30,340 bases of DNA from IMG/VR virus record IMGVR_UViG_2531839446_000015. One strand, given 5' to 3'. Shown piece by piece: positions 297 to 9,002 of this stretch (position 1 is its first letter; each line of letters starts with the position of its first letter). The notes beneath the pieces were generated by a model that did not search any database, was not told the DNA's origin, and worked only from the letters and a program-made list of their open reading frames with translations. This DNA is from a virus. Taxonomy: Duplodnaviria > Heunggongvirae > Uroviricota > Caudoviricetes. The translations under genes and the position numbers were made by a program.

Positions 297-1337
297 CTAA
301 GCTGTCGCGACATTTTTGCGACATTTTAGGGGGTTAAGTCGCACAGCATCTTCAAGGTGGCTTGGGGCGAAGTGGGCATAACGCATTGTCATGGTTATGT
401 CAGCGTGGCCGAGAATTTTTTGCAAAACCAGAATGTTTCCGCCGTTCATCATAAAGTGGCTGGCAAATGTATGGCGCAGTACATGGGTAAGCTGGCCGGA
501 GGGGAGTTCAATGCCTGCGCGTTCCAGAGCAGAGCGGAAAGCGTTGTAGCAGGGCTTGGGGAACAGAGCGCCTTTTGTTTCAGGTAATTCGGACAGAAGT
601 TCATCATCAAGGGGAATTGTTCTGTTGCGCTTCCCTTTGGTTTTGACGAACGTGACTTTACCCCCGGCGATCTGGGAGCTTTTCAGCGTTGCCGCCTCAT
701 TCCACCTTGCGCCGGTAGCAAGGCAGATTTTGACAACTAATTCTAGGTACTTAACTTTGCTTCGTTTGCATTCCAGTAAAAGCCGATCAATTTCTTCGGT
801 AGTGAGGAAAGCCATTTCGGTTTCATCAGTACGATACTGTCTGACGTTTTCCAGTGGGTTGGGTGCTGACCATTCACCAATCCGTTTCAGTTCATTGAAC
901 ATCGCTAGAAAGTAAGCATGTTCAAGGTTCATAGTTTTCGGGGAAACCTTAGATACTCTGTTGGTGCGGGCATAATGCCCATCCAGCCTTTTAGCGCGGT
1001 AGGCTGTGAACAACTGGGCATTAAATTCTGTGGCCAGCGGGAATCCCATGCATTCCGCCGCCCAGGTCATAGCATCTTTACGCTTTTCGCCATTGCTCAA
1101 AGCTACGCCGTGGCGTTCATACCACATTGTTATCAGATCTATTAAAGTTCGCTTGTCCTTCCCTTCACCCAGCCACGGAGCTGCGTCTACTTTCTGAAGC
1201 GTATGGTTTTCGAATGCCAGGGCTTCCCCTTTCGTGGCAAATTTTTTACGTATACGCTTCCCGTTCTTGCCATTACTGCGGTTGACGGTGTAGAAGTCGG
1301 CGATCCATTCGCCTGTAGGAAGTTTACGAACGCTCAT
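297..1337 (-). CDS. int: Tyrosine integrase (P2/186 family site-specific recombinase)
   Basis: 346 aa ORF; C-terminal catalytic signature HVLRHTFASHF ... LGHADITMTMRYAH (His/Arg box and active-site Tyr); lies directly downstream of the repressor gene with 1-nt spacing (cI stop 1339-1341, int ATG 1335-1337), as in 186. Confidence 0.9.
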   Translation of the reverse strand: MSVRKLPTGEWIADFYTVNRSNGKNGKRIRKKFATKGEALAFENHTLQKVDAAPWLGEGKDKRTLIDLITMWYERHGVALSNGEKRKDAMTWAAECMGFPLATEFNAQLFTAYRAKRLDGHYARTNRVSKVSPKTMNLEHAYFLAMFNELKRIGEWSAPNPLENVRQYRTDETEMAFLTTEEIDRLLLECKRSKVKYLELVVKICLATGARWNEAATLKSSQIAGGKVTFVKTKGKRNRTIPLDDELLSELPETKGALFPKPCYNAFRSALERAGIELPSGQLTHVLRHTFASHFMMNGGNILVLQKILGHADITMTMRYAHFAPSHLEDAVRLNPLKCRKNVATA

Positions 1338-1338
1338 T

Positions 1339-1962
1339 TTATTTTATCGTCAGAACAACGCGGCCTATGATTTTTATGTCGTCAATTCCGCAATCAAATG
1401 CCATACCAACACCGCTAACTCTGACTTTTCGTACCGGAATCCGTGTAAGAGTGCGGACGCTTGTTTTTCCTTCAACTTCAACCAACCAATCATCGTCATA
1501 AACTTCAGAATAAGACTGGTCAACAATGTACTGAATAAGGCCATCCAGAACACAAATCGGTTGTTGCGGTAAGGGCTTGCCAGGCAGGAAGATGACTTTA
1601 TCAAGCATAAGTGTGCCAGCGTCATAGAGTTGGCCATCAACAATCTTGCTGCGCGGCATTTTGAGTATGTCTAATTCATCATCATTAAATTTACGTCCCT
1701 GTCCTGTTGCCAGCCACTCCAGATTAGCGCCTGTTTCGGCTACGCATTTCACGACAATATCTGCCGGGAAAACTCCACGCTTGTAGCGTGAAGAAAGAGA
1801 ACTGGCTGCCATGTCCAGATGTTCCGCGAGCTGTAACTTCTGCGTAAATCCGTAAGCCTCGATCACCCTGTCAAGAATCGGTGTGCTATCTACGTTTAGG
1901 TCGATTTTAAATGTGCTCATAGCGAATCCATAAGTCTCGATTCGAGAAATTGCCATTGACAC
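1339..1962 (-). CDS. cI: CI-type immunity repressor (186 CI-like)
   Basis: About 205 aa; N-terminal EAYGFTQKLQLAEHLDMAASSLSSRYKRG and C-terminal CGIDDIKIIGRVV resemble my recollection of coliphage 186 CI; divergent from the apl/cII operon. The annotated start at 1962 is GTG; an in-frame ATG at 1954-1956 is an alternative start. Confidence 0.8.
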   Translation of the reverse strand: MSMAISRIETYGFAMSTFKIDLNVDSTPILDRVIEAYGFTQKLQLAEHLDMAASSLSSRYKRGVFPADIVVKCVAETGANLEWLATGQGRKFNDDELDILKMPRSKIVDGQLYDAGTLMLDKVIFLPGKPLPQQPICVLDGLIQYIVDQSYSEVYDDDWLVEVEGKTSVRTLTRIPVRKVRVSGVGMAFDCGIDDIKIIGRVVLTIK

Positions 1963-2011: not shown

Positions 2012-2055
2012 ATAACCCTGTATTGCCGTACAGGTTAACTTGTGGAGTTTGCCTT

Positions 2056-2277
2056 ATGCGTCCGAACATTACAATCATCATCCCAGAACCATACCTGCCT
2101 TTAGACGAGTATTGCCGCCGTACTGGCACCAACAAAGAAACCGCCAGGAACCTGATCGAATACGGAAAATTACCTATTAAGCCGAAGGGTAAGCAGAAGA
2201 AAGGCCTGGTCGAAGTCAACATGGCCGCGCTCACTATTCAGGCTTTAAGTGAATGTGACATTTCGCTTAACGCGTAA
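2056..2277 (+). CDS. Apl/Cox-like excisionase and early regulator (by position and size)
   Basis: 73 aa from the ATG at 2056 (the track ORF starts earlier at 2023); first gene of the rightward operon facing cI, the position held by apl in 186 and cox in P2. Sequence similarity was not verified. Confidence 0.5.
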   Translation: MRPNITIIIPEPYLPLDEYCRRTGTNKETARNLIEYGKLPIKPKGKQKKGLVEVNMAALTIQALSECDISLNA

Positions 2278-2307
2278 TCCATCCTACGGATTAGGGAGAG
2301 GCAAACA

Positions 2308-2811
2308 ATGTTTGATTACCAGACATCTAAACATGCGCACTTTGATGCGGCTTGCCGAGCATTTGCAACTGAGCACAATCTTGAAGATGTGGCCGCTGCT
2401 GTTGGTATGAGGCCACAGATCTTGCGCAACAAACTGAACCCAGCGCAACCGCACCGCCTAACCTGTGATGAGCTTTTGGCTATCACGGATTACACCGAAG
2501 ATGCACGTTTACTTGATGGGATGTTAGGTCAGATTAACTGCCTTCCATCCGTGCCGGTGAACAATGCCACTGAAGCCAACATGCAACTGTGTGCGCTTAG
2601 CGCCACTGCGTGTGTGGGAGCGATTGCTGGGGAAGCCGTATCAACTGGCCATATGACCGCCGCCCGCCGTGCTCAAATTTTGGATCGCGCCCGCGATGCA
2701 ATCCGTAGCTTATCCGTGCTGGCTTATACCGTTGAAAGCCGTATTCACTCTGCGCCGGTTCTGGCTGCTGCGGTGGATCTGGTCACAACCCACGCCACCG
2801 GCCTGATGTGA
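2308..2811 (+). CDS. cII: CII-like transcriptional activator (186 CII family)
   Basis: 167 aa; N-terminus MFDYQTSKHAHFDAACRAFA ... LRNKLNPAQPH ... CLPSVPVNN closely matches my recollection of 186 CII; purine-rich stretch upstream of the ATG at 2308. Confidence 0.75.
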   Translation: MFDYQTSKHAHFDAACRAFATEHNLEDVAAAVGMRPQILRNKLNPAQPHRLTCDELLAITDYTEDARLLDGMLGQINCLPSVPVNNATEANMQLCALSATACVGAIAGEAVSTGHMTAARRAQILDRARDAIRSLSVLAYTVESRIHSAPVLAAAVDLVTTHATGLM

Positions 2812-2820
2812 GGGAACACT

Positions 2821-2994
2821 ATGAAAGCGTTTGTCACTTACCTGAAAAAAGAATCACCAGCCATGCAGTTGCCGAGTGGTTCAACGGGCTGGATAGAACT
2901 GCCGAACGGTCAGCGCTGGAACCCAGGCCACATTTACAAATTCAATGGCCAGCAGCCGCGCCGCCCGTGGTGGCGTCGTCTGATGGGGCTATAG
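2821..2994 (+). CDS. Small hypothetical protein (57 aa, basic C-terminus)
   Basis: ATG at 2821 preceded by GAGGGA (2810-2815); ends TAG 2992-2994. Below the 60-aa cutoff of the ORF track. It is in a different frame from the 2808 track ORF and overlaps its 5' part, so this is an alternative gene model. Confidence 0.3.
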   Translation: MKAFVTYLKKESPAMQLPSGSTGWIELPNGQRWNPGHIYKFNGQQPRRPWWRRLMGL

Positions 2995-3002
2995 GAGGCG
3001 TT

Positions 3003-3431
3003 ATGGCGATTAGCCAGGAACAGCAAAAGCGCGGGCTGGAGCATTTAAAACAGATCCGCCGCAAATACTTCAGCAAAAGCAGCGAGGCCGCTGAATGGTG
3101 GGACAACTTAACACCGGAGTGGCGCGGCGTAGTGCTTCATGCTGCTGCGGTTACATCTGGTACCGGGGCATTTAAAGCCCATTTAAGTAAGTGCTGCTGG
3201 CGGGAGCTTTATGACCGCCTGGGCTATCGGGACATGATTCAACTGCGCCAGGGCATTTCACGGGCGCGGTTAACGTTTGAAGGTTTCGGCAGTTTACGTG
3301 ACAGCGATTTTTCGAAGCGCACCGCGAACCGCTCGATCAAAAAAGTACATCCCATTTATAGCAGTGGCGGGGTGCAGATGGTGATCGCGCCGCATATCGT
3401 CCATAAGTTCCAGCAACAGGGGAATCACTAA
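3003..3431 (+). CDS. Hypothetical early protein (142 aa)
   Basis: ATG at 3003 sits 4 nt after a perfect AGGAGG (2993-2998). The track ORF 2808-3431 is the same frame extended upstream to a GTG with no Shine-Dalgarno. Confidence 0.5.
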   Translation: MAISQEQQKRGLEHLKQIRRKYFSKSSEAAEWWDNLTPEWRGVVLHAAAVTSGTGAFKAHLSKCCWRELYDRLGYRDMIQLRQGISRARLTFEGFGSLRDSDFSKRTANRSIKKVHPIYSSGGVQMVIAPHIVHKFQQQGNH

Positions 3432-3832
3432 TGACCATTATTTCCGTTGAGGGCAAATCGTTGGGGGCAGAGCTGGCTGTGTGGGGCGTCCCGCATAACT
3501 ACGCATTAGCGTTTGCAGAGAAAAGCACCAGTAAAAATGGGCGTATCGCTTTGCATCCGTTCTTCTTCAATGACACTGAACACATGACAAATCCGCGTCA
3601 CTGGCTGGCGATCAATGCTGCTTTCTGGTGCTGCGTGTATCGCGAAGCGGAAAGCAAAGAAGCCCAGATAGAAGCGCTGGCGGGGATTCGTGCAATTTTC
3701 TATACAGCCGGGGCATTGGGAGTTGGCGAGATAAAAGCGCTGATCCAGGAGTGGTGGCGGACAACCTATGAGCTGCACCTGATTCCGGCTCCGAACTACT
3801 CAGCCGCCACAGTACAACCCACTTTTCACTAA
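3431..3832 (+). CDS. Hypothetical early protein (133 aa)
   Basis: TAATG stop-start overlap with the upstream gene; no family recognised by eye. Confidence 0.5.
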   Translation: MTIISVEGKSLGAELAVWGVPHNYALAFAEKSTSKNGRIALHPFFFNDTEHMTNPRHWLAINAAFWCCVYREAESKEAQIEALAGIRAIFYTAGALGVGEIKALIQEWWRTTYELHLIPAPNYSAATVQPTFH

Positions 3833-3851
3833 TTAACAGCCTGAATTTTTT

Positions 3852-3885
3852 GGCCACGGTTCAAGTGGCCGGGGATTCTTTTGCC
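3852..3885 (+). terminator. Intergenic hairpin, possible attenuator or weak terminator
   Basis: GGCCAC (3852-3857) and GTGGCC (3865-3870) form a 6-bp stem with a 7-nt loop, followed by GGGGATTCTTTTGCC; the T-run is separated from the stem by four G residues. Confidence 0.25.
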
Positions 3886-3899
3886 TTAAGGAAACCAAA

Positions 3900-4133
3900 A
3901 TGCACATGACACGTCAGGATTTACCCGCAACAAAATCAGGCACCGACCTGCTGGCCATGCTCACCAAAGCCACGCAGGAAGGTAAAGCCGCAGTTGCTGA
4001 TCTGTGTTCCACCCGTCTGGATAAGCTGGCCACTCATGCGGCCAATGAAGGTTTAAGCGCAACGGAAATCGTTGAGTTAATCCGCGAAGAAGCCGCAGCG
4101 ATTTGCAGCAAAGGCGGTGCGGCATGGCAGTAA
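3900..4133 (+). CDS. Hypothetical small protein (77 aa)
   Basis: AAGGA Shine-Dalgarno upstream of ATG 3900; alanine-rich, predicted helical; no family recognised. Confidence 0.4.
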
Positions 4134-4453
4134 AAATTCATGCGGTAAAAATTGCGCCAAAATATCTTGATGCAGTAGTGGCTGGTCAGAAAAAGGCCGA
4201 GCTGCGAAAAAACGATCGCGGGTATAAAACCGGTGATGTTCTTTCATTGTGCGAGTGGAAGCACGGGAAATACACCGGGCGAGAGTGGGCGGCAGTTATC
4301 ACCCATGTTTTGCCGGTGAATGAAATTATCGCTGATACCGAAAATTGGGTGGTTTTATCTATCCGTTCGCTGTCACCGCTTGAAGTGCTGGAATACATCA
4401 TTTCAAACGGTGTAACAGAGTCGTTAGTTGGCGGAGGTCAATATGGCCGTTAA
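4124..4453 (+). CDS. ASCH-like / DUF3850-like small protein
   Basis: From internal ATG 4124: [45 protein letters not shown] resembles the DUF3850/ASCH pattern (KIWPEYFEAV..GKKTFEIRKNDRDFxVGD) as I recall it; overlaps the previous gene by 10 nt. Confidence 0.5.
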
Positions 4454-5303
4454 AACTCCGCTTAAATGGGTGGGCAGCAAAGCCCGCCTCATGCCTAAGC
4501 TGCGTCCGCACCTTCCAGAAGGTAAACGCCTGGTTGAACCGTTCGCAGGTTCCTGCGCCGTCATGATGAATACGGATTATGACGAGTATCTGATCGCAGA
4601 TGTGAATCCTGACCTGGTTAATCTTTATAAGGCGATGGCGTATCACACTAATGCGCTGCTGAATGAGCTGGAGATCCTGTTTTCTGCCGGTTCGTTAGGT
4701 GATGTAGAAAGCCGTGCCGTTTTCTATTACGCAGTGCGTGATGCTTTCAATCTTTCTGGTGGTAAGGCCGGTTCTGAATCTGTTGAAAATGCTGCGCGTT
4801 TCCTGTACCTGAACCGGCACTGCTTCAATGGTCTGTGTCGGTATAACCGTCGAGGCCAGTTCAACGTCCCGTTCGGTAAGTACAAAAAGCCTTATTTCCC
4901 CGCTGATGAAATCCGCGCCTTTGCTGAAAAAGCAAAACGCGCAACGTTCATTACTGCCCACTATTCAGAAACGCTTGATTTGGTTCGGGGCGGGAGTGAC
5001 GTTGTTTACTGTGATCCGCCTTATCTGACTGATGCCGACAATTTCACCGCTTACCATGAGCGCGGTTTTTCGCATATGGATCAGGGGCGGCTGGCGCGTA
5101 AACTGCGCCGTCTGGCGGAACGTGGGATTCCCGTTGTCGCGTCAAACAGCGATCTGGAAATGGTGCATTACCTGTATGCAGGGTTTGACGCCGTAAAGGT
5201 TAATGCGCCGCGTAGTGTCGGTGCGGCAGCTGCAAGCCCGAAAACGGCGGCAGAGCTGATTCTTAAATGGCCTTTACCGGCGACTTCTGAGGCCAGCGCA
5301 TGA
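4443..5303 (+). CDS. dam: DNA adenine methyltransferase, Dam (GATC) family
   Basis: Motifs [13 protein letters not shown] (N-terminal Dam/SAM motif) and DPPY (catalytic); GGAGG before ATG 4443; stop overlaps the A-gene start (ATGA at 5300-5303). Confidence 0.85.
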
Positions 5304-7321
5304 CGCTGGCAATAAACGAACAATGCTATGCCGTTGATGCCTGGAGGCGGGAAACTTTCGCACCAGGCACACCGGCAGACGCGACTATCACAGAACGCCG
5401 CCTGTGGGCTGTAAACCCGCAGGATTATGAATGGCGATCCCGGTACCTGCATGAGATACCCGACTGGTTAGCCGGGTATTTTGGCCGTCGCTATGAAAAG
5501 CTTTTTTCTGGCCGTGACGGGCGTCGCCGTGCCAATACATTCCTGCGCAAAACAATCGGTGAGAATGTATTGCCACGTCTGCGCAAAGTGGCTGCGCGTT
5601 ACTCGCTGGCCGCTGATGCTGCTGATCTTCCTTTTGGTAAGTCGCTGGAGCGCTTGCCGTCACTAGACCGTCCTGATCTTAAAAAACTGGCTGGCCAGGT
5701 ATCTGGCTGGATTTCCCAGTCACTTTATGACTTCACCGAACAGTTTGATTCCGGCACTGACGACGCCAGAGAGCTGCATCGCCGCACTCTGGAATCTTAC
5801 CGCCATCTTTGTGCCTGTTGCCTGATGCTGAATAACCAGCCGCCGTACTGGACTGAACATGAGGCCAATGAAGGTCAACTGGAAATGCGTAAGGCGGAAT
5901 CCGGGATACTGCGCATGATGGCGCCGGAATGGTGGTACCTGCGTCTTAAACGTGCGCGTGATACGCAGCGCGAGCACATGGCCATTGCGGTGGGACAGGT
6001 GCAAAAAGCGGCCAGCGCTTATGTATCCCGCAAAACACTGGGTGAATGGATAGACCAGAAAAAGCGGAATCTGGAGTTCTTTAAAAAGTTTGATCTGCTG
6101 AATGATGAGGGGCTGCGCATTGCACTGGACAGCATGGTGCACCGCAGCGTTGCAAATCCGGCGATCCGTCGATGTGAACTAATGGTAAGAATGCGAGGGT
6201 TTGAAGATATGGCCAATGAAGAAGGGCTGGCCGGTGAGTTTTACACTATCACCGCGCCATCACGTTTCCATGCGGTTCACAGCAAAGGGGGCTTTGTATC
6301 GCAATGGGATGGAAGTACGCCGCAGGATACCCAGCGCTATTTATGCGGCGTATGGGCAAAAGCGCGTGCAGCGATCTCGCGTGCTGGTATCCATGTATTT
6401 GGGTTTCGGGTTGTTGAGCCTCACCATGACGGGACACCGCACTGGCATATGTTGCTTTTTATGCGTCCGCAGGACGTGGACACGGTACGCGATATTCTTT
6501 GTTATCACGCCAGAATTACCGATTCTGAAGAACTGCAATCTGAAAAGGCGCTGAAGGCGCGTTTTCATGTTGAAGCTATCGATCCCGCCAAAGGTTCGGC
6601 CACGGGCTACATCGCGAAATACATTTCAAAAAATATTGATGGTTTTGCGCTGGATGGTGAGCAGGACGAAGAAACCGGCGAAAACCTGCGTGATATGGCT
6701 AAGTCCGTTTCCGCGTGGGCTTCACGCTGGCGTATTCGCCAGTTTCAGCAGATTGGTGGTGCGCCGGTAACCGTCTGGCGTGAGCTGCGTCGGTTGCGGG
6801 ATCAGGTACTGACAGATCGCAGAATGGATGCGGTTCTGGCCGCTGCTGATGTCGGGGACTGGGCTGCATATACCCAGGCGCAGGGAGGTGCACTGGTTGC
6901 CCGCCGTGATCTGGTTGTTCGTCTGGCCTATGAAATTACGGAACAGGGCAACGAATACGCGGAGGACGTGCAGCGCGTACAGGGTGTTTATTCTCCTTTG
7001 ATTCCTGATTCAGAAGTTTGCACCCGTCTGGTTAAGTGGCAAAAGGTTGCGAAGTTGGCCGAAGCGCCAGCGGAGGCGGGTTTTTCTGGCGGCAACGCCG
7101 CCCCTTGGAGTTCTGTCAATAACTGTACGGAGGGGGGAACCCGCAGACGGTTAAAACTGGAATTACGCAGTCGGGGTTTTGAGGGTTCCGATGAAGAAAT
7201 AGCCATTCTCCTGCGGGGTAGTGGTTTGATATTTGGTCAGGGGGCACTGATTTACCGCAATGGGCGGTTGAAGGAAACACGAAACGAACCATTGCAGGAG
7301 CTTTGGCCGGGGTGGTTATAG
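5300..7321 (+). CDS. Rolling-circle replication initiator (P2 gpA / 186 A family endonuclease)
   Basis: 673 aa; HUH-type motif PHWHMLLF and active-site tyrosine region YIAKYISKN; position after the early operon. Confidence 0.85.
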   Translation: MTLAINEQCYAVDAWRRETFAPGTPADATITERRLWAVNPQDYEWRSRYLHEIPDWLAGYFGRRYEKLFSGRDGRRRANTFLRKTIGENVLPRLRKVAARYSLAADAADLPFGKSLERLPSLDRPDLKKLAGQVSGWISQSLYDFTEQFDSGTDDARELHRRTLESYRHLCACCLMLNNQPPYWTEHEANEGQLEMRKAESGILRMMAPEWWYLRLKRARDTQREHMAIAVGQVQKAASAYVSRKTLGEWIDQKKRNLEFFKKFDLLNDEGLRIALDSMVHRSVANPAIRRCELMVRMRGFEDMANEEGLAGEFYTITAPSRFHAVHSKGGFVSQWDGSTPQDTQRYLCGVWAKARAAISRAGIHVFGFRVVEPHHDGTPHWHMLLFMRPQDVDTVRDILCYHARITDSEELQSEKALKARFHVEAIDPAKGSATGYIAKYISKNIDGFALDGEQDEETGENLRDMAKSVSAWASRWRIRQFQQIGGAPVTVWRELRRLRDQVLTDRRMDAVLAAADVGDWAAYTQAQGGALVARRDLVVRLAYEITEQGNEYAEDVQRVQGVYSPLIPDSEVCTRLVKWQKVAKLAEAPAEAGFSGGNAAPWSSVNNCTEGGTRRRLKLELRSRGFEGSDEEIAILLRGSGLIFGQGALIYRNGRLKETRNEPLQELWPGWL

Positions 7322-7440: not shown

Positions 7441-7647
7441 ATGGATCTTTTGGAGGCGTCGGCACAGCTGGAACGCATTGAGTTATTGGCCAAAATTGCC
7501 CATGTTTACGAAAGTAACCAGAGAGAAAAAACAATCGCTTTGGCCTGGATTGGAGAGCTTGCGGGAGAGGTTCGCGAAATGGTTAAAAAGGAAGGGCAAC
7601 GCCCCCAGAATGGGGGCATTTCAGGCGGCGGGAGTCGCTTTCAGTAG
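7441..7647 (+). CDS. Hypothetical small helical protein (68 aa), doubtful
   Basis: ORF in the A-to-portal interval; weak G-rich Shine-Dalgarno; 3' end overlaps the convergent ogr-like gene by 27 nt. Confidence 0.25.
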   Translation: MDLLEASAQLERIELLAKIAHVYESNQREKTIALAWIGELAGEVREMVKKEGQRPQNGGISGGGSRFQ

Positions 7648-7890
7648 GTCTAATGCCATCTGGCGCTGATCGGGTGAAAGTGCATTCAGTATTTTTTGCA
7701 CCATCGCATCACCCGCTTTAGCGCTGGGGCTGAGAGTGTGGGAGAACGTCAGATTCATAACAAACGTGTGGCCACACTCAACATCTGAACAGGCGCAGTA
7801 AATATCCGCAATTTGCCGGTGCTTCCTGTTCGTTTTACGAATAACAGCCTTTGAGCCGCATTCCGGGCATTCGATTTTCAGAACTCGCAT
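7621..7890 (-). CDS. ogr: Ogr/Delta-family zinc-finger late-gene transcription activator
   Basis: From ATG 7890 (GGAG upstream): MRVLKIECPECGSKAVIRKTNRKHRQIADIYCACSDVECGHTF gives C-x2-C-x22-C-x4-C spacing and a C-terminal TF motif as in P2 Ogr (CPLC ... CQNVNCSATF). The track ORF extends to 7944 with no Shine-Dalgarno. Confidence 0.7.
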   Translation of the reverse strand: MRVLKIECPECGSKAVIRKTNRKHRQIADIYCACSDVECGHTFVMNLTFSHTLSPSAKAGDAMVQKILNALSPDQRQMALDLLKATPAA

Positions 7891-7940
7891 ATTCCATGCT
7901 CCAGCTGTTAAATGATGCCTGGATTTTAGCCTGTTTCGCC

Positions 7941-9002
7941 TCATGCCGCACCCTTATCCGTTGATTCTGTGTAACTTAAATCAAAGTTAAGGTGTAGCCT
8001 TTCCGGTATTTCGGGATCATTGTTAACGGCCAGCATAAAACGGCGCTGGATGGGGGCAATTTCGCTTTTCTTGTAAATGCGTTCAGCCTTTTCAACATCC
8101 CCCAGTCCGGCAGTGTTCTGCGGGACAATACCGGCGAGGCCAGCAGGGAAACGGTGAGCGTTCAGAATGTCCTGGGCGCTGATGTTCTTGATGTTGGCAA
8201 ATTCATCCTTTGCGGAAATATCCCCCATTTCAATGAATTTGATGGCGTCGCCGTCTCCACCGGGAATGTTTACAAGGATGGTGGAGAAGTTACCGATCCC
8301 TTTGCTGTCACGCAGCTGCTGTTCAATTTCTTCCTCCATTTCGTCCGTCATGCTGGGATCGCGGGTATAAAGAATACCGCCTGTGTGCGCACCATTGTGG
8401 TAATAGCGGCGTCGGAAAATGACCGCTTCACTGTTAAGTAACGCGGAATGCACACCGCCTATGTAGTCCGGCAGCCCGTAGATATGCTGTTGCGGGTCAT
8501 ACATTTTGATGAAGATAATATCTTCTTCTGGCCATACCTGCGGTTCCCCTTCCTGTAACACCACGTAGTCACCAGGCTTATCCAGGGCGTTATCTCTGAC
8601 TTTGCGGCGGCGAATATACAGACCGGGCAAGGGTTCAAGTGCGATCACGTCACCCCAGCCGTTACGAATTTTGGCAATCGCAATATCCCCAAAGGTTATA
8701 TAGTCAAACGCTGCCGCTTCCAGCTGGTCGTGAATAAGCCCGCCCCCCTGGTAGTCTGAAACAATCATGTTTTTACGGGCGTGAATGATGCCGCCGTGCT
8801 GACCGTTAAGATTAATCAGTTGCGCGAGTGCCAGCCGGTCAATCGGCTGGGTGAAGTGATCGGCGGCATTGTCGTACCAGATATCACGGTAATCTGTGCC
8901 GGTAGTCAGAACTGGTTCAGGTTTGCCGAATGTGATAATGCTCATCTTTTTTGATTTGTCGCCGCGCTGGTCGCGCTTAACAAAGCGTTTCTTTTTACTC
9001 AT
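7941..9002 (-). CDS. Portal protein (P2 gpQ-like)
   Basis: 353 aa; overlaps the large terminase stop; gene order Q-P opposite to O-N-M-L as in P2. Confidence 0.85.
   Translation of the reverse strand: MSKKKRFVKRDQRGDKSKKMSIITFGKPEPVLTTGTDYRDIWYDNAADHFTQPIDRLALAQLINLNGQHGGIIHARKNMIVSDYQGGGLIHDQLEAAAFDYITFGDIAIAKIRNGWGDVIALEPLPGLYIRRRKVRDNALDKPGDYVVLQEGEPQVWPEEDIIFIKMYDPQQHIYGLPDYIGGVHSALLNSEAVIFRRRYYHNGAHTGGILYTRDPSMTDEMEEEIEQQLRDSKGIGNFSTILVNIPGGDGDAIKFIEMGDISAKDEFANIKNISAQDILNAHRFPAGLAGIVPQNTAGLGDVEKAERIYKKSEIAPIQRRFMLAVNNDPEIPERLHLNFDLSYTESTDKGAA

Follow-up and report, generated by a model that had tools for sequence, protein, structure and literature searches.

The closest described systems to the locus analysed here are the early operons of phages 186 and P2. 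The early lytic operon of 186 runs apl-cII-fil-dhr-tR1-orf80...A, where fil encodes a cell-division inhibitor, dhr an inhibitor of host replication, and tR1 is a terminator. In P2, the order is cox-orf78-B-terminator-orf80-81-82-83-A-orf91; cII and fil are absent and gene B, needed for lagging-strand synthesis, lies in the slot before the terminator. No functional work on 186 fil or dhr, on DUF2732 or on Quadragintavirus/ESSI-2 phages was found in the searchable literature; the phenotype of Fil is known from a note in the 186 record.

The window considered here is a 30,340-nucleotide stretch of viral DNA (IMG/VR record IMGVR_UViG_2531839446_000015). Its interval 2821-4453 is most probably (about 0.8) the distal portion of an early lytic operon, of the pR type, in a P2-family prophage that is 186-like and Quadragintavirus-type, and carries five genes in two blocks. 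We make this assignment because the gene order matches that of 186 and P2 and because the Fil, DUF2732 and DUF3850 proteins pass curated cut-offs. The features of the interval and of its surroundings are as follows.

cII (context), 2308..2811, plus strand: 186-type CII activator, directly upstream of the five ORFs (Pfam Phage_CP76, 5.7e-47)
ORF1, 2821..2994, plus strand: Fil-family protein of 57 aa, pI 11, homologous to the cell-division inhibitor encoded by 186 fil
ORF2, 3003..3431, plus strand: basic (pI 10.1, net charge +11), helical protein of 142 aa; uncharacterised family phrog_33841
ORF3, 3431..3832, plus strand: protein of 133 aa; phrog_3935; its start overlaps the ORF2 stop (TAATG)
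Predicted intrinsic terminator, 3847..3882, plus strand: counterpart of 186 tR1; stem GGCCAC (3852-3857) and GTGGCC (3865-3870), loop 3858-3864
ORF4, 3900..4133, plus strand: DUF2732 protein of 77 aa, homologue of Orf80 of 186 and P2; opens the second block
ORF5, 4124..4453, plus strand: DUF3850/ASCH (PUA-like) protein of 109 aa, homologue of P2 Orf91; overlaps the dam start
dam (context), 4443..5303, plus strand: D12-class N6-adenine DNA methyltransferase (PF02086, 1.5e-65)
A (context), 5300..7321, plus strand: rolling-circle replication endonuclease, 46% identical to 186 A

Layout of the locus

CII of the window is 44% identical to 186 CII, and the counterparts of A in related loci carry the annotation replication endonuclease or Phage_GPA. 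The order cII-Fil-ORF2-ORF3-terminator-DUF2732 is identical across 13 species. Fil-ORF2-ORF3-DUF2732 is retained in two distant loci (L020 and L022), and in a third, whose sequence is cut off (L023), cII is followed by ORF2-ORF3 and no gene is called as Fil. Between DUF2732 and A, gene content differs among loci. The reality of the genes, their start sites, family memberships and synteny, the terminator and a narrow distribution are established here. Neither Rfam families nor tRNAs were found in the window.

The genes had been described as tightly packed, which holds for the overlaps: ORF2 and ORF3 have TAATG in common, ORF4 and ORF5 share 10 nt, ORF5 and dam 11 nt, and dam and A 4 nt. The packing is not uniform, however, as a gap of 67 nt (3833-3899) separates ORF3 from ORF4 and contains the conserved terminator. 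Fil-ORF2-ORF3 would thus form a first block, before the terminator, and Orf80-DUF3850-dam-A a second block, past it.

Gene reality and start sites

All five genes, of 57, 142, 133, 77 and 109 aa, were found at the coordinates and lengths of the initial call, and close relatives annotated in RefSeq/PGAP have the same five genes with identical lengths. When the window is aligned with four relatives, the sites that vary fall mostly at the third codon position, with counts at positions 1/2/3 of 3/1/23 in ORF1, 20/17/75 in ORF2, 8/5/60 in ORF3 and 4/3/16 in ORF4; the five genes are under purifying selection. The Shine-Dalgarno sequences attributed to all of them are clear for ORF1 (GAGGGA), ORF2 (AGGAGG) and ORF4 (AAGGAA); ORF3 has GGGGA, and ORF5 is preceded only by a weak AAGG/GG.

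A different start model would fuse the first two genes into a single 207-aa GTG-initiated ORF (2808-3431), leaving ORF1 as a spurious overlapping frame. This frame is indeed open in the window and its closest relatives, and one database entry, P0107, is called in it; P0107 is nevertheless the sole entry to use the fused frame, and is incomplete at 107 aa. Counted in the 207-aa frame, variable sites fall 23/3/1, against 3/1/23 in the Fil frame, and the Pfam and PHROG matches lie in the Fil frame. In L004 and L005 the fusion is broken by the loss of 1 nt or the gain of 2 nt, and the ORF2 frame of L004, L006 and L010 is without any upstream start. In addition, full-length ORF2 homologues measure about 136-146 aa, most of them 141-146 (the shorter entries being fragments or chimeras), and the PHROG profile match starts at residue 11 of the 142-aa ORF2. 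That the 207-aa ORF is the true gene is therefore scarcely conceivable: codon-position counts, indels and relatives lacking upstream starts mark it as an artefact, and favour starts at 2821 and 3003 over 2808, as the first-pass annotation had proposed.

The Fil and Orf80 homologues

Only the last of the five genes had been thought to resemble a known domain, a view that is not sustained, as ORF1 and ORF4 both score above Pfam cut-offs. ORF1 matches PF10893 (Phage_186_Fil) over residues 1-37 with 40.1 bits (cut-off 25, E 3e-10) and phrog_816, 'cell division inhibitor', at 3.5e-8; PGAP names its family "phage filamentation protein Fil family protein". By BLASTP, it is 39% identical to 186 Fil over 33 aa (E 6e-7), the likeness being confined to the N-terminal ~35 residues of proteins that differ in length (57 versus 75 aa). 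ORF1 begins 9 nt past the cII stop, the same place as 186 fil, and this arrangement is kept in 13 species. By homology, ORF1 would inhibit host cell division when expressed, and Fil is the sole family among the five with an assigned phenotype.

ORF4 matches PF10809 (DUF2732) with 46.2 bits (cut-off 25, E 4.4e-12) and is related to Orf80 of both 186 (32% identity over 66 aa, E 6e-7) and P2 (E 2e-7). It directly follows the terminator, a position that matches that of Orf80 in the two phages. The 186 record describes Orf80 as of 'unknown function; not essential'.

A conserved predicted terminator between ORF3 and ORF4

The top terminator-like site in a scan lies at 3847-3882 and consists of a GC-rich hairpin followed by a T-rich tract, with the tail GGGGATTCTTTT after the stem. 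Such a terminator occurs at the same place in 17 of 17 related loci (4 close relatives and 13 species), where the stem is kept and the loop varies. Across the stem, 92.5% of cells are paired, as compared to 22-45% in slid controls; both sides change in 4 of 7 pairs, and none of 500 shuffles matches the observed value. The tail is common to the annotated 186 tR1 and to the putative P2 terminator. The site is a predicted intrinsic terminator homologous to 186 tR1, and separates ORF1, ORF2 and ORF3 from ORF4 and ORF5. Of note, this terminator had been overlooked in the first-pass annotation.

ORF5, a DUF3850/ASCH protein in a variable slot

The ASCH/DUF3850-like character noticed earlier for ORF5 is borne out by matches to PF12961 (6.3e-23, 81.2 bits; cut-off 22.9) and to ASCH (3.8e-5, 24.8 bits; cut-off 21.2). 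ORF5 also matches PDB 3IUW (2e-8); judging solely from this alignment, its fold would be a PUA-like beta-barrel. Its relative in P2 is Orf91 (48% identity over 71 aa, E 3e-22). The ASCH superfamily, which includes YqfB, TthASCH, EOLA1 and PDB 3IUW, has a conserved 'GKER'-type octapeptide, GxKxxExR (PMC6803910), whose K and E are essential (PMC6803910; bioRxiv 10.64898/2026.02.27.708502). The octapeptide is intact in ORF5 (G21-Q-K23-K-A-E26-L-R28), and recurs in P2 Orf91 as well as in the orthologues of L006, L014, L016 and L020.

ORF5 has a GC content of 46%, while neighbouring genes are at 52-55%, and it is missing in L003, L004, L008, L011, L013 and L017; it thus occupies a variable, optional cassette slot. 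An obligatory linkage between DUF3850 and dam was considered and rejected because dam exists without DUF3850, and DUF3850 without dam.

The intact octapeptide suggests a pocket that binds nucleosides or nucleic acids, and ORF5 could possibly have an activity of the N4-acylcytidine amidohydrolase type. More generally, the P2-like DUF3850/Orf91 family may be a phage eraser or reader of N4-acetylcytidine, or of another modified base, acting early in infection. DUF3850 nonetheless forms a family of its own, and enzymatic activity has been demonstrated only in other ASCH proteins. The presence of the motif in the P2 Orf91 family offers a concrete and cheap biochemical test for a gene listed as "unknown" since P2 was sequenced.

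The ORF2-ORF3 pair

The region is therefore largely ordinary: three of its five genes belong to families known from 186 and P2, and only ORF2 and ORF3 are true unknowns. These two genes are adjacent in every locus examined, including the distant L020, L022 and L023, where ORF2 is recognized with E-values of about 1e-7 to 1e-14 and its neighbour is still ORF3 (hhalign about 1e-42). Conservation across 186-like prophages, which the first-pass annotation had named as a check, is found for the pair, present in one order in 13 species. The pair does not extend beyond one narrow clade of prophages, which are 186-like and come from Enterobacterales. ORF3 also occurs in Cronobacter phage ESSI-2 (68%) and Yersinia phage vB_YenM_324 (49%).

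Neither ORF2 nor ORF3 has a match in Pfam, NCBIfam, PADLOC, PDB sequences or fold searches, and sequence and profile searches against PDB gave only chance-level matches. The predicted fold of ORF3 is confident and has no match in BFVD; for ORF2, the predicted structure has a low confidence (pLDDT 66). Together, the two genes fill the interval between fil and the terminator, i.e., the dhr slot in 186 and the B slot in P2. No homology was found to 186 Dhr, P2 B, P2 Orf78 or lambda P: BLASTP gave no alignment with Dhr at E<=100, and profile comparison gave hhalign probabilities of 0.2% for P2 B, with the ORF2 as well as the ORF3 profile, and 0.23% for lambda P. With these two proteins lacking known relatives, clear homology to functionally defined 186 proteins does not extend to all five genes. 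The conserved ORF3 loop HPFFFNDTEH was also considered as a metal or catalytic site, an idea rejected because H42, E50 and H51 are lost in distant homologues.

Possible roles of ORF2 and ORF3

The first-pass annotation had regarded this place in the genome as a plausible one for unannotated functions, and the location is indeed a 186-type early operon, home of accessory genes such as fil and dhr. ORF2 and ORF3 would be translationally coupled in the window, and probably work jointly as an early, host-directed accessory module rather than as partners of the phage replicase; such a module may inhibit host DNA replication or another essential host process. Since neither protein has a homologue of known function, this proposal draws only on position and patterns of inheritance. 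The pair is passed on with cII-Fil-Orf80, whatever the A allele or the immunity module: loci L008 and L009 have a common early block, yet their A proteins are 50% and 86% identical, respectively, and in L010 cI is at 38% but cII at 95%. We infer the biochemical functions of all five proteins throughout. A joint reading, in which ORF2-ORF3 would be an unrecognised host-takeover module replacing Dhr, ORF3 would have a new fold and DUF3850/Orf91 would be an eraser or reader of modified bases, is possible, though less likely than not.

The position of the pair, exactly where P2 has its essential gene B and directly before a homologous terminator, could also point to a replication accessory, a non-homologous stand-in for P2 gpB that would serve A instead of attacking the host. 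Three of 38 ORF2 family members even show a faint match to the Pfam family of lambda P replication proteins (best E 0.13). These matches failed the profile comparison described above, however, no PDB profile match was found for either protein, and in 186 the same slot is without a B equivalent. In addition, ORF2-ORF3 are unchanged beside the two divergent A alleles of L008 and L009, which argues against a specific pairing with A, and we consider a role in replication unlikely. Operon regulators that bind nucleic acids, for instance by helping RNA polymerase to read through the downstream terminator, would be in line with the strongly basic character of ORF2, with the N-terminal beta-alpha-alpha-beta-beta order of the ORF3 model, which in our reading is winged-helix-like, and with the 186 record, where tR1 and other terminators are said to be anti-terminated during early lytic development. 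Yet neither protein matches HTH or other DNA/RNA-binding families (the best hit is a single member at E 0.15-0.3), and 186 and P2 have the homologous terminator without ORF2 or ORF3, so that read-through in these phages cannot depend on them. Such a regulatory role is very unlikely.

Finally, the first-pass annotation had raised the idea of an action on competing phages, and ORF2-ORF3, perhaps with ORF5, could counter these or host immunity. ORF2 and ORF3 are accessory genes of the early operon, limited to one narrow clade, and ORF5 lies in a cassette slot that is variable and low in GC, beside a Dam methylase, a classic anti-restriction asset. Furthermore, DUF3850 fusions are enriched in prophages, and anti-defence roles have been a matter of speculation for the authors who reported them (bioRxiv preprint 10.1101/2025.10.10.680097). 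PADLOC gave no significant match for any of the five proteins (none for ORF1-4, and one 15-bit partial match, E 0.003, for ORF5), and ORF2-ORF3 are invariant core genes of their clade, unlike typical anti-defence loci, which are swapped cassettes. By analogy with 186, pR would moreover be repressed by CI in the lysogen, and a resident prophage would therefore not express these genes to exclude other phages. This role is improbable, and we retain the host-directed module as the preferred reading for ORF2-ORF3. If the pair targets an essential host process, it could represent a new small protein inhibitor, and could account for the difference in host dependence between this clade and 186. The residual value of the locus lies in this conserved and narrowly distributed pair, devoid of sequence or fold relatives.

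Comparison with 186, P2 and ESSI-2-type phages

This previously unannotated stretch can now be placed on the well-studied early-operon map of 186 and P2, with its start sites fixed and prototype homologues in these phages for three of the five former "unknowns". Gene order and orientation match those of the 186 early lytic operon: cII, Fil and Orf80/DUF2732 are homologous, the A replicase lies downstream in both, and the terminator marks the equivalent junction and has a GGG(G/C)ATTCTTTTGCC tail in both. In contrast, dhr is replaced in the window by the unrelated ORF2-ORF3, and orf81-84 by DUF3850 and dam. P2 and the window both have a terminator followed by Orf80/DUF2732, whereas the DUF3850 gene comes after A in P2 and before dam in the window.

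The most similar phages are the Escherichia phages ESSI2_ev015, ESSI2_ev040 and ESSI2_ev129 (Peduoviridae, Quadragintavirus and relatives), with about 92-94% nucleotide identity to the window. An orf82-type exonuclease is present in close relatives and absent from the window, and phages of the ev015 type have an extra gene for a DnaQ-like 3'-5' exonuclease between DUF2732 and DUF3850, which the window is missing. The annotation of ESSI2_ev015 (about 93% identity) has the same five genes as the window, with the same lengths.

The five small genes and their frames

The window is the carrier of a prophage of the P2/186 family, whose leftmost genes include five small early-operon genes, here ORF1 to ORF5:

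297-1337, minus strand: integrase
1339-1962, minus strand: CI-type repressor
within 2023-2277, plus strand: Apl/Cox-like gene
2308-2811, plus strand: 186-type cII (Pfam Phage_CP76, 5.7e-47)
2821-2994, plus strand: ORF1, 57 aa
3003-3431, plus strand: ORF2, 142 aa
3431-3832, plus strand: ORF3, 133 aa
3847-3882, plus strand: intrinsic terminator, in the 67-nt gap 3833-3899 between ORF3 and ORF4
3900-4133, plus strand: ORF4, 77 aa
4124-4453, plus strand: ORF5, 109 aa
4443-5303, plus strand: Dam methylase
5300-7321, plus strand: A replication endonuclease

Over 2200-5400 the window shares about 92-94% identity with three Escherichia phages, ESSI2_ev015, ev040 and ev129 (Quadragintavirus, Peduoviridae); of 5,426 complete genomes of E. 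coli, 32 contain prophages resembling this segment. For dam, a mechanical ORF list takes the TTG at 4428 as the start; the relatives' annotation uses ATG 4443, with GGAGG ahead of it. Downstream of A, a 68-aa ORF (7441-7647, plus strand) sits where ev015 has "FIG01046174 hypothetical protein", and a convergent Cys-rich ORF (CPECG...CACSDVEC; 7621-7944, minus strand), whose listed 107-aa form probably begins too far upstream, takes the position of the relatives' Ogr/Delta zinc-finger late activator.

The five-gene stretch is real. For the most part it is an ordinary section, already annotated, of an early operon like that of 186. The same ORFs as in the first-pass annotation were recovered, and RefSeq/PGAP calls in ev015 and E. 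coli prophages give identical genes of equal lengths. When the window was aligned with four relatives, variable sites at codon positions 1/2/3 numbered 3/1/23 for ORF1, 20/17/75 for ORF2, 8/5/60 for ORF3 and 4/3/16 for ORF4; these four genes are therefore under purifying selection in exactly the proposed frames. ORF5, left out of this count because two relatives do not have it, is supported by strong family matches.

The rival model, a single 207-aa GTG-initiated ORF (2808-3431) given by the ORF track, is an artefact. In its frame the same variable sites fall 23/3/1, that is, on first codon positions; L005, one of the related loci compared (L001-L023), has a 1-nt deletion just past the GTG and L004 a 2-nt insertion ahead of the ORF2 ATG. 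Only seven open codons precede this ATG in L004 and L010, with no start codon among them, and L006 likewise offers no upstream start. Homologues of ORF2, when full-length, measure about 136-146 aa; on the 142-aa form, the matching PHROG profile starts from residue 11. Codon counts, indels, missing upstream starts and homologue lengths all bear out the earlier preference for starts at 2821 and 3003, and computationally the choice of start sites is settled. One database gene call, P0107, follows the artefactual 2808-type frame.

A conserved terminator between ORF3 and ORF4

The top terminator-like site of the region lies in the gap 3833-3899, where a GGCCAC/GTGGCC stem with a 7-nt loop is followed by the tail GGGGATTCTTTTGCC, nearly identical to the tails of the annotated 186 tR1 and P2 terminators. 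The same hairpin recurs at this junction in 17 of 17 related loci (four close relatives and 13 species), the stem being constant and the loop variable. In an alignment of 16 sequences, among them 186 tR1 and the putative terminator of P2, 92.5% of cells are paired, and at four of the seven pairs both sides have changed; none of 500 shuffles reached these values, and slid controls were only 22-45% paired. This sequence evidence indicates that the site, absent from the first-pass annotation, is homologous to both terminators. As in 186 and P2, therefore, the five genes form two blocks, with Fil (ORF1), ORF2 and ORF3 5' of the terminator and Orf80 (ORF4), DUF3850 (ORF5), dam and A 3' of it.

RNA folding of the gap also predicts a second small hairpin (3873-3896), found in several relatives too, in which the terminator T-tract TTCTTT pairs with the ORF4 Shine-Dalgarno region AAGGAA. 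It may be mere pyrimidine/purine complementarity, or may couple read-through to ORF4 translation.

Genes with prototype homologues

The initial view that a known domain is recognisable in the last ORF alone is wrong: three of the five genes have prototype homologues in 186 or P2. ORF1 matches Pfam Phage_186_Fil (40.1 bits; gathering score 25), and its PHROG match bears the label "cell division inhibitor". Over 33 residues it is 39% identical to 186 Fil (E 6e-7), and like fil in 186 it directly follows cII; in PGAP annotation the orthologue is already called "phage filamentation protein Fil family protein". ORF4 is a DUF2732 protein (46.2 bits against 25), homologous to Orf80 of 186 and of P2; the 186 record marks orf80 as non-essential.

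The ASCH/DUF3850 assignment of ORF5 held, with matches to DUF3850 (6.3e-23), the ASCH model, PDB 3IUW (2e-8) and P2 Orf91 (48% identical, E 3e-22). The signature octapeptide of ASCH, GxKxxExR (PMC6803910), reads G21-Q-K23-K-A-E26-L-R28 and is retained in P2 Orf91 and the orthologues in L006, L014, L016 and L020. In other ASCH proteins, a 2026 preprint (bioRxiv 10.64898/2026.02.27.708502) reports, deacetylation of N4-acetylcytidine requires the "GKER"-type Lys and Glu. A concrete biochemical hypothesis now exists for the P2 Orf91-type protein.

The variable interval from DUF2732 to A

ORF5 occupies a cassette slot whose content differs among related phages, and its GC content is 46%, versus 52-55% for its neighbours.

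Content of the DUF2732-A slot
L018: empty
L003, L011, L013: dam alone
L008, L017: dam, 70-aa membrane protein
L004: dam, 213-nt hypothetical gene (annotated between dam and A)
L009: dam, 107-aa protein, membrane protein
Window, L006, L014: DUF3850, dam
L016: DUF3850, dam, additional 84-aa protein
ev015, L005: DnaQ-like exonuclease, DUF3850, dam
L020: DUF3850, unrelated 97-aa protein

The DnaQ-like 3'-5' exonuclease gene, a 186 orf82 homologue, lies between DUF2732 and DUF3850 in the closest relatives (L001 4431-5021; L005 3425-4129) and is missing at the 4133/4124 junction of the window, as is the 70-aa protein, predicted to have two hydrophobic segments, that some relatives encode between dam and A (L008 7556-7768; L009 7876-8088; L017 7519-7731). 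Since slot contents vary and P2 carries its DUF3850 gene after A and has no dam, there is no support for linking DUF3850 to Dam functionally.

ORF2 and ORF3

The true unknowns among the five are ORF2 and ORF3. Neither matched Pfam, NCBIfam or PADLOC, nor 186 Dhr, P2 B, P2 Orf78 or lambda P, nor PDB sequences, whether as single queries or as profiles. Both families are small and confined to Enterobacterales: when the ORF2 profile was run with HMMER against all 1.84 billion representatives, only 40 clusters reached E<=1e-3, and six different phage isolates, out of 50,697 records, carry ORF3. AlphaFold2 models ORF3 (pLDDT 85.7, pTM 0.80) with a beta-alpha-alpha-beta-beta unit at the N-terminus and, in addition, a helical bundle; this is a confidently predicted fold without relatives. 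Residues 1-55 (3431-3600; L..E...WGVP.NY...F) recall MerR/Xis-type winged helices, with no family match behind the resemblance. Chimeric database proteins among P0198, P0193 and P0206 join a Fil N-terminus to an ORF3 fragment, the ORF3 N-terminus to the A C-terminus, and the ORF3 C-terminus to that of DUF2732; deletions in decaying prophages appear to have produced them.

The suggested check on conservation across 186-like prophages gave a clear result: the order cII-Fil-ORF2-ORF3-terminator-DUF2732 is unchanged in genome contigs from 13 species. Fil-ORF2-ORF3-DUF2732 is kept in L020 and L022, and the cut-off contig L023 has cII-ORF2-ORF3 and no called Fil gene. Divergence of the ORF2 relative in these three distant loci reaches E 1e-7 to 1e-14, yet a homologue of ORF3 (hhalign E ~1e-42, 47-49% identity) still follows, at most 12 nt away; the two genes overlap (TAATG) in the window and close relatives. 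Relative to the window, L010 is only 38% identical in cI and 31% in apl but 95% in cII, and L008 and L009, with near-identical early blocks, have A proteins 50% and 86% identical to the window's, respectively. The early block moves independently of the immunity module and of the replicase A. Near-identical cII-Fil-ORF2-ORF3-Orf80 blocks are joined to divergent A alleles and unrelated immunity modules, which places recombination joints just outside the block.

This pattern of inheritance is evidence that ORF2 and ORF3 may act as a unit not matched to one A protein, which would favour a host-directed role over one as partners of the replicase. Accessory functions at the location of ORF1-ORF5 are a reasonable proposal; that it holds a new host-takeover pair (ORF2-ORF3) and/or a phage ac4C or modified-base enzyme is rather unlikely, at roughly one chance in four. 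ORF2 and ORF3 merit modest follow-up as conserved, co-inherited orphans, one with a predicted fold without relatives, in the slot that is held by dhr in 186 and by B in P2.
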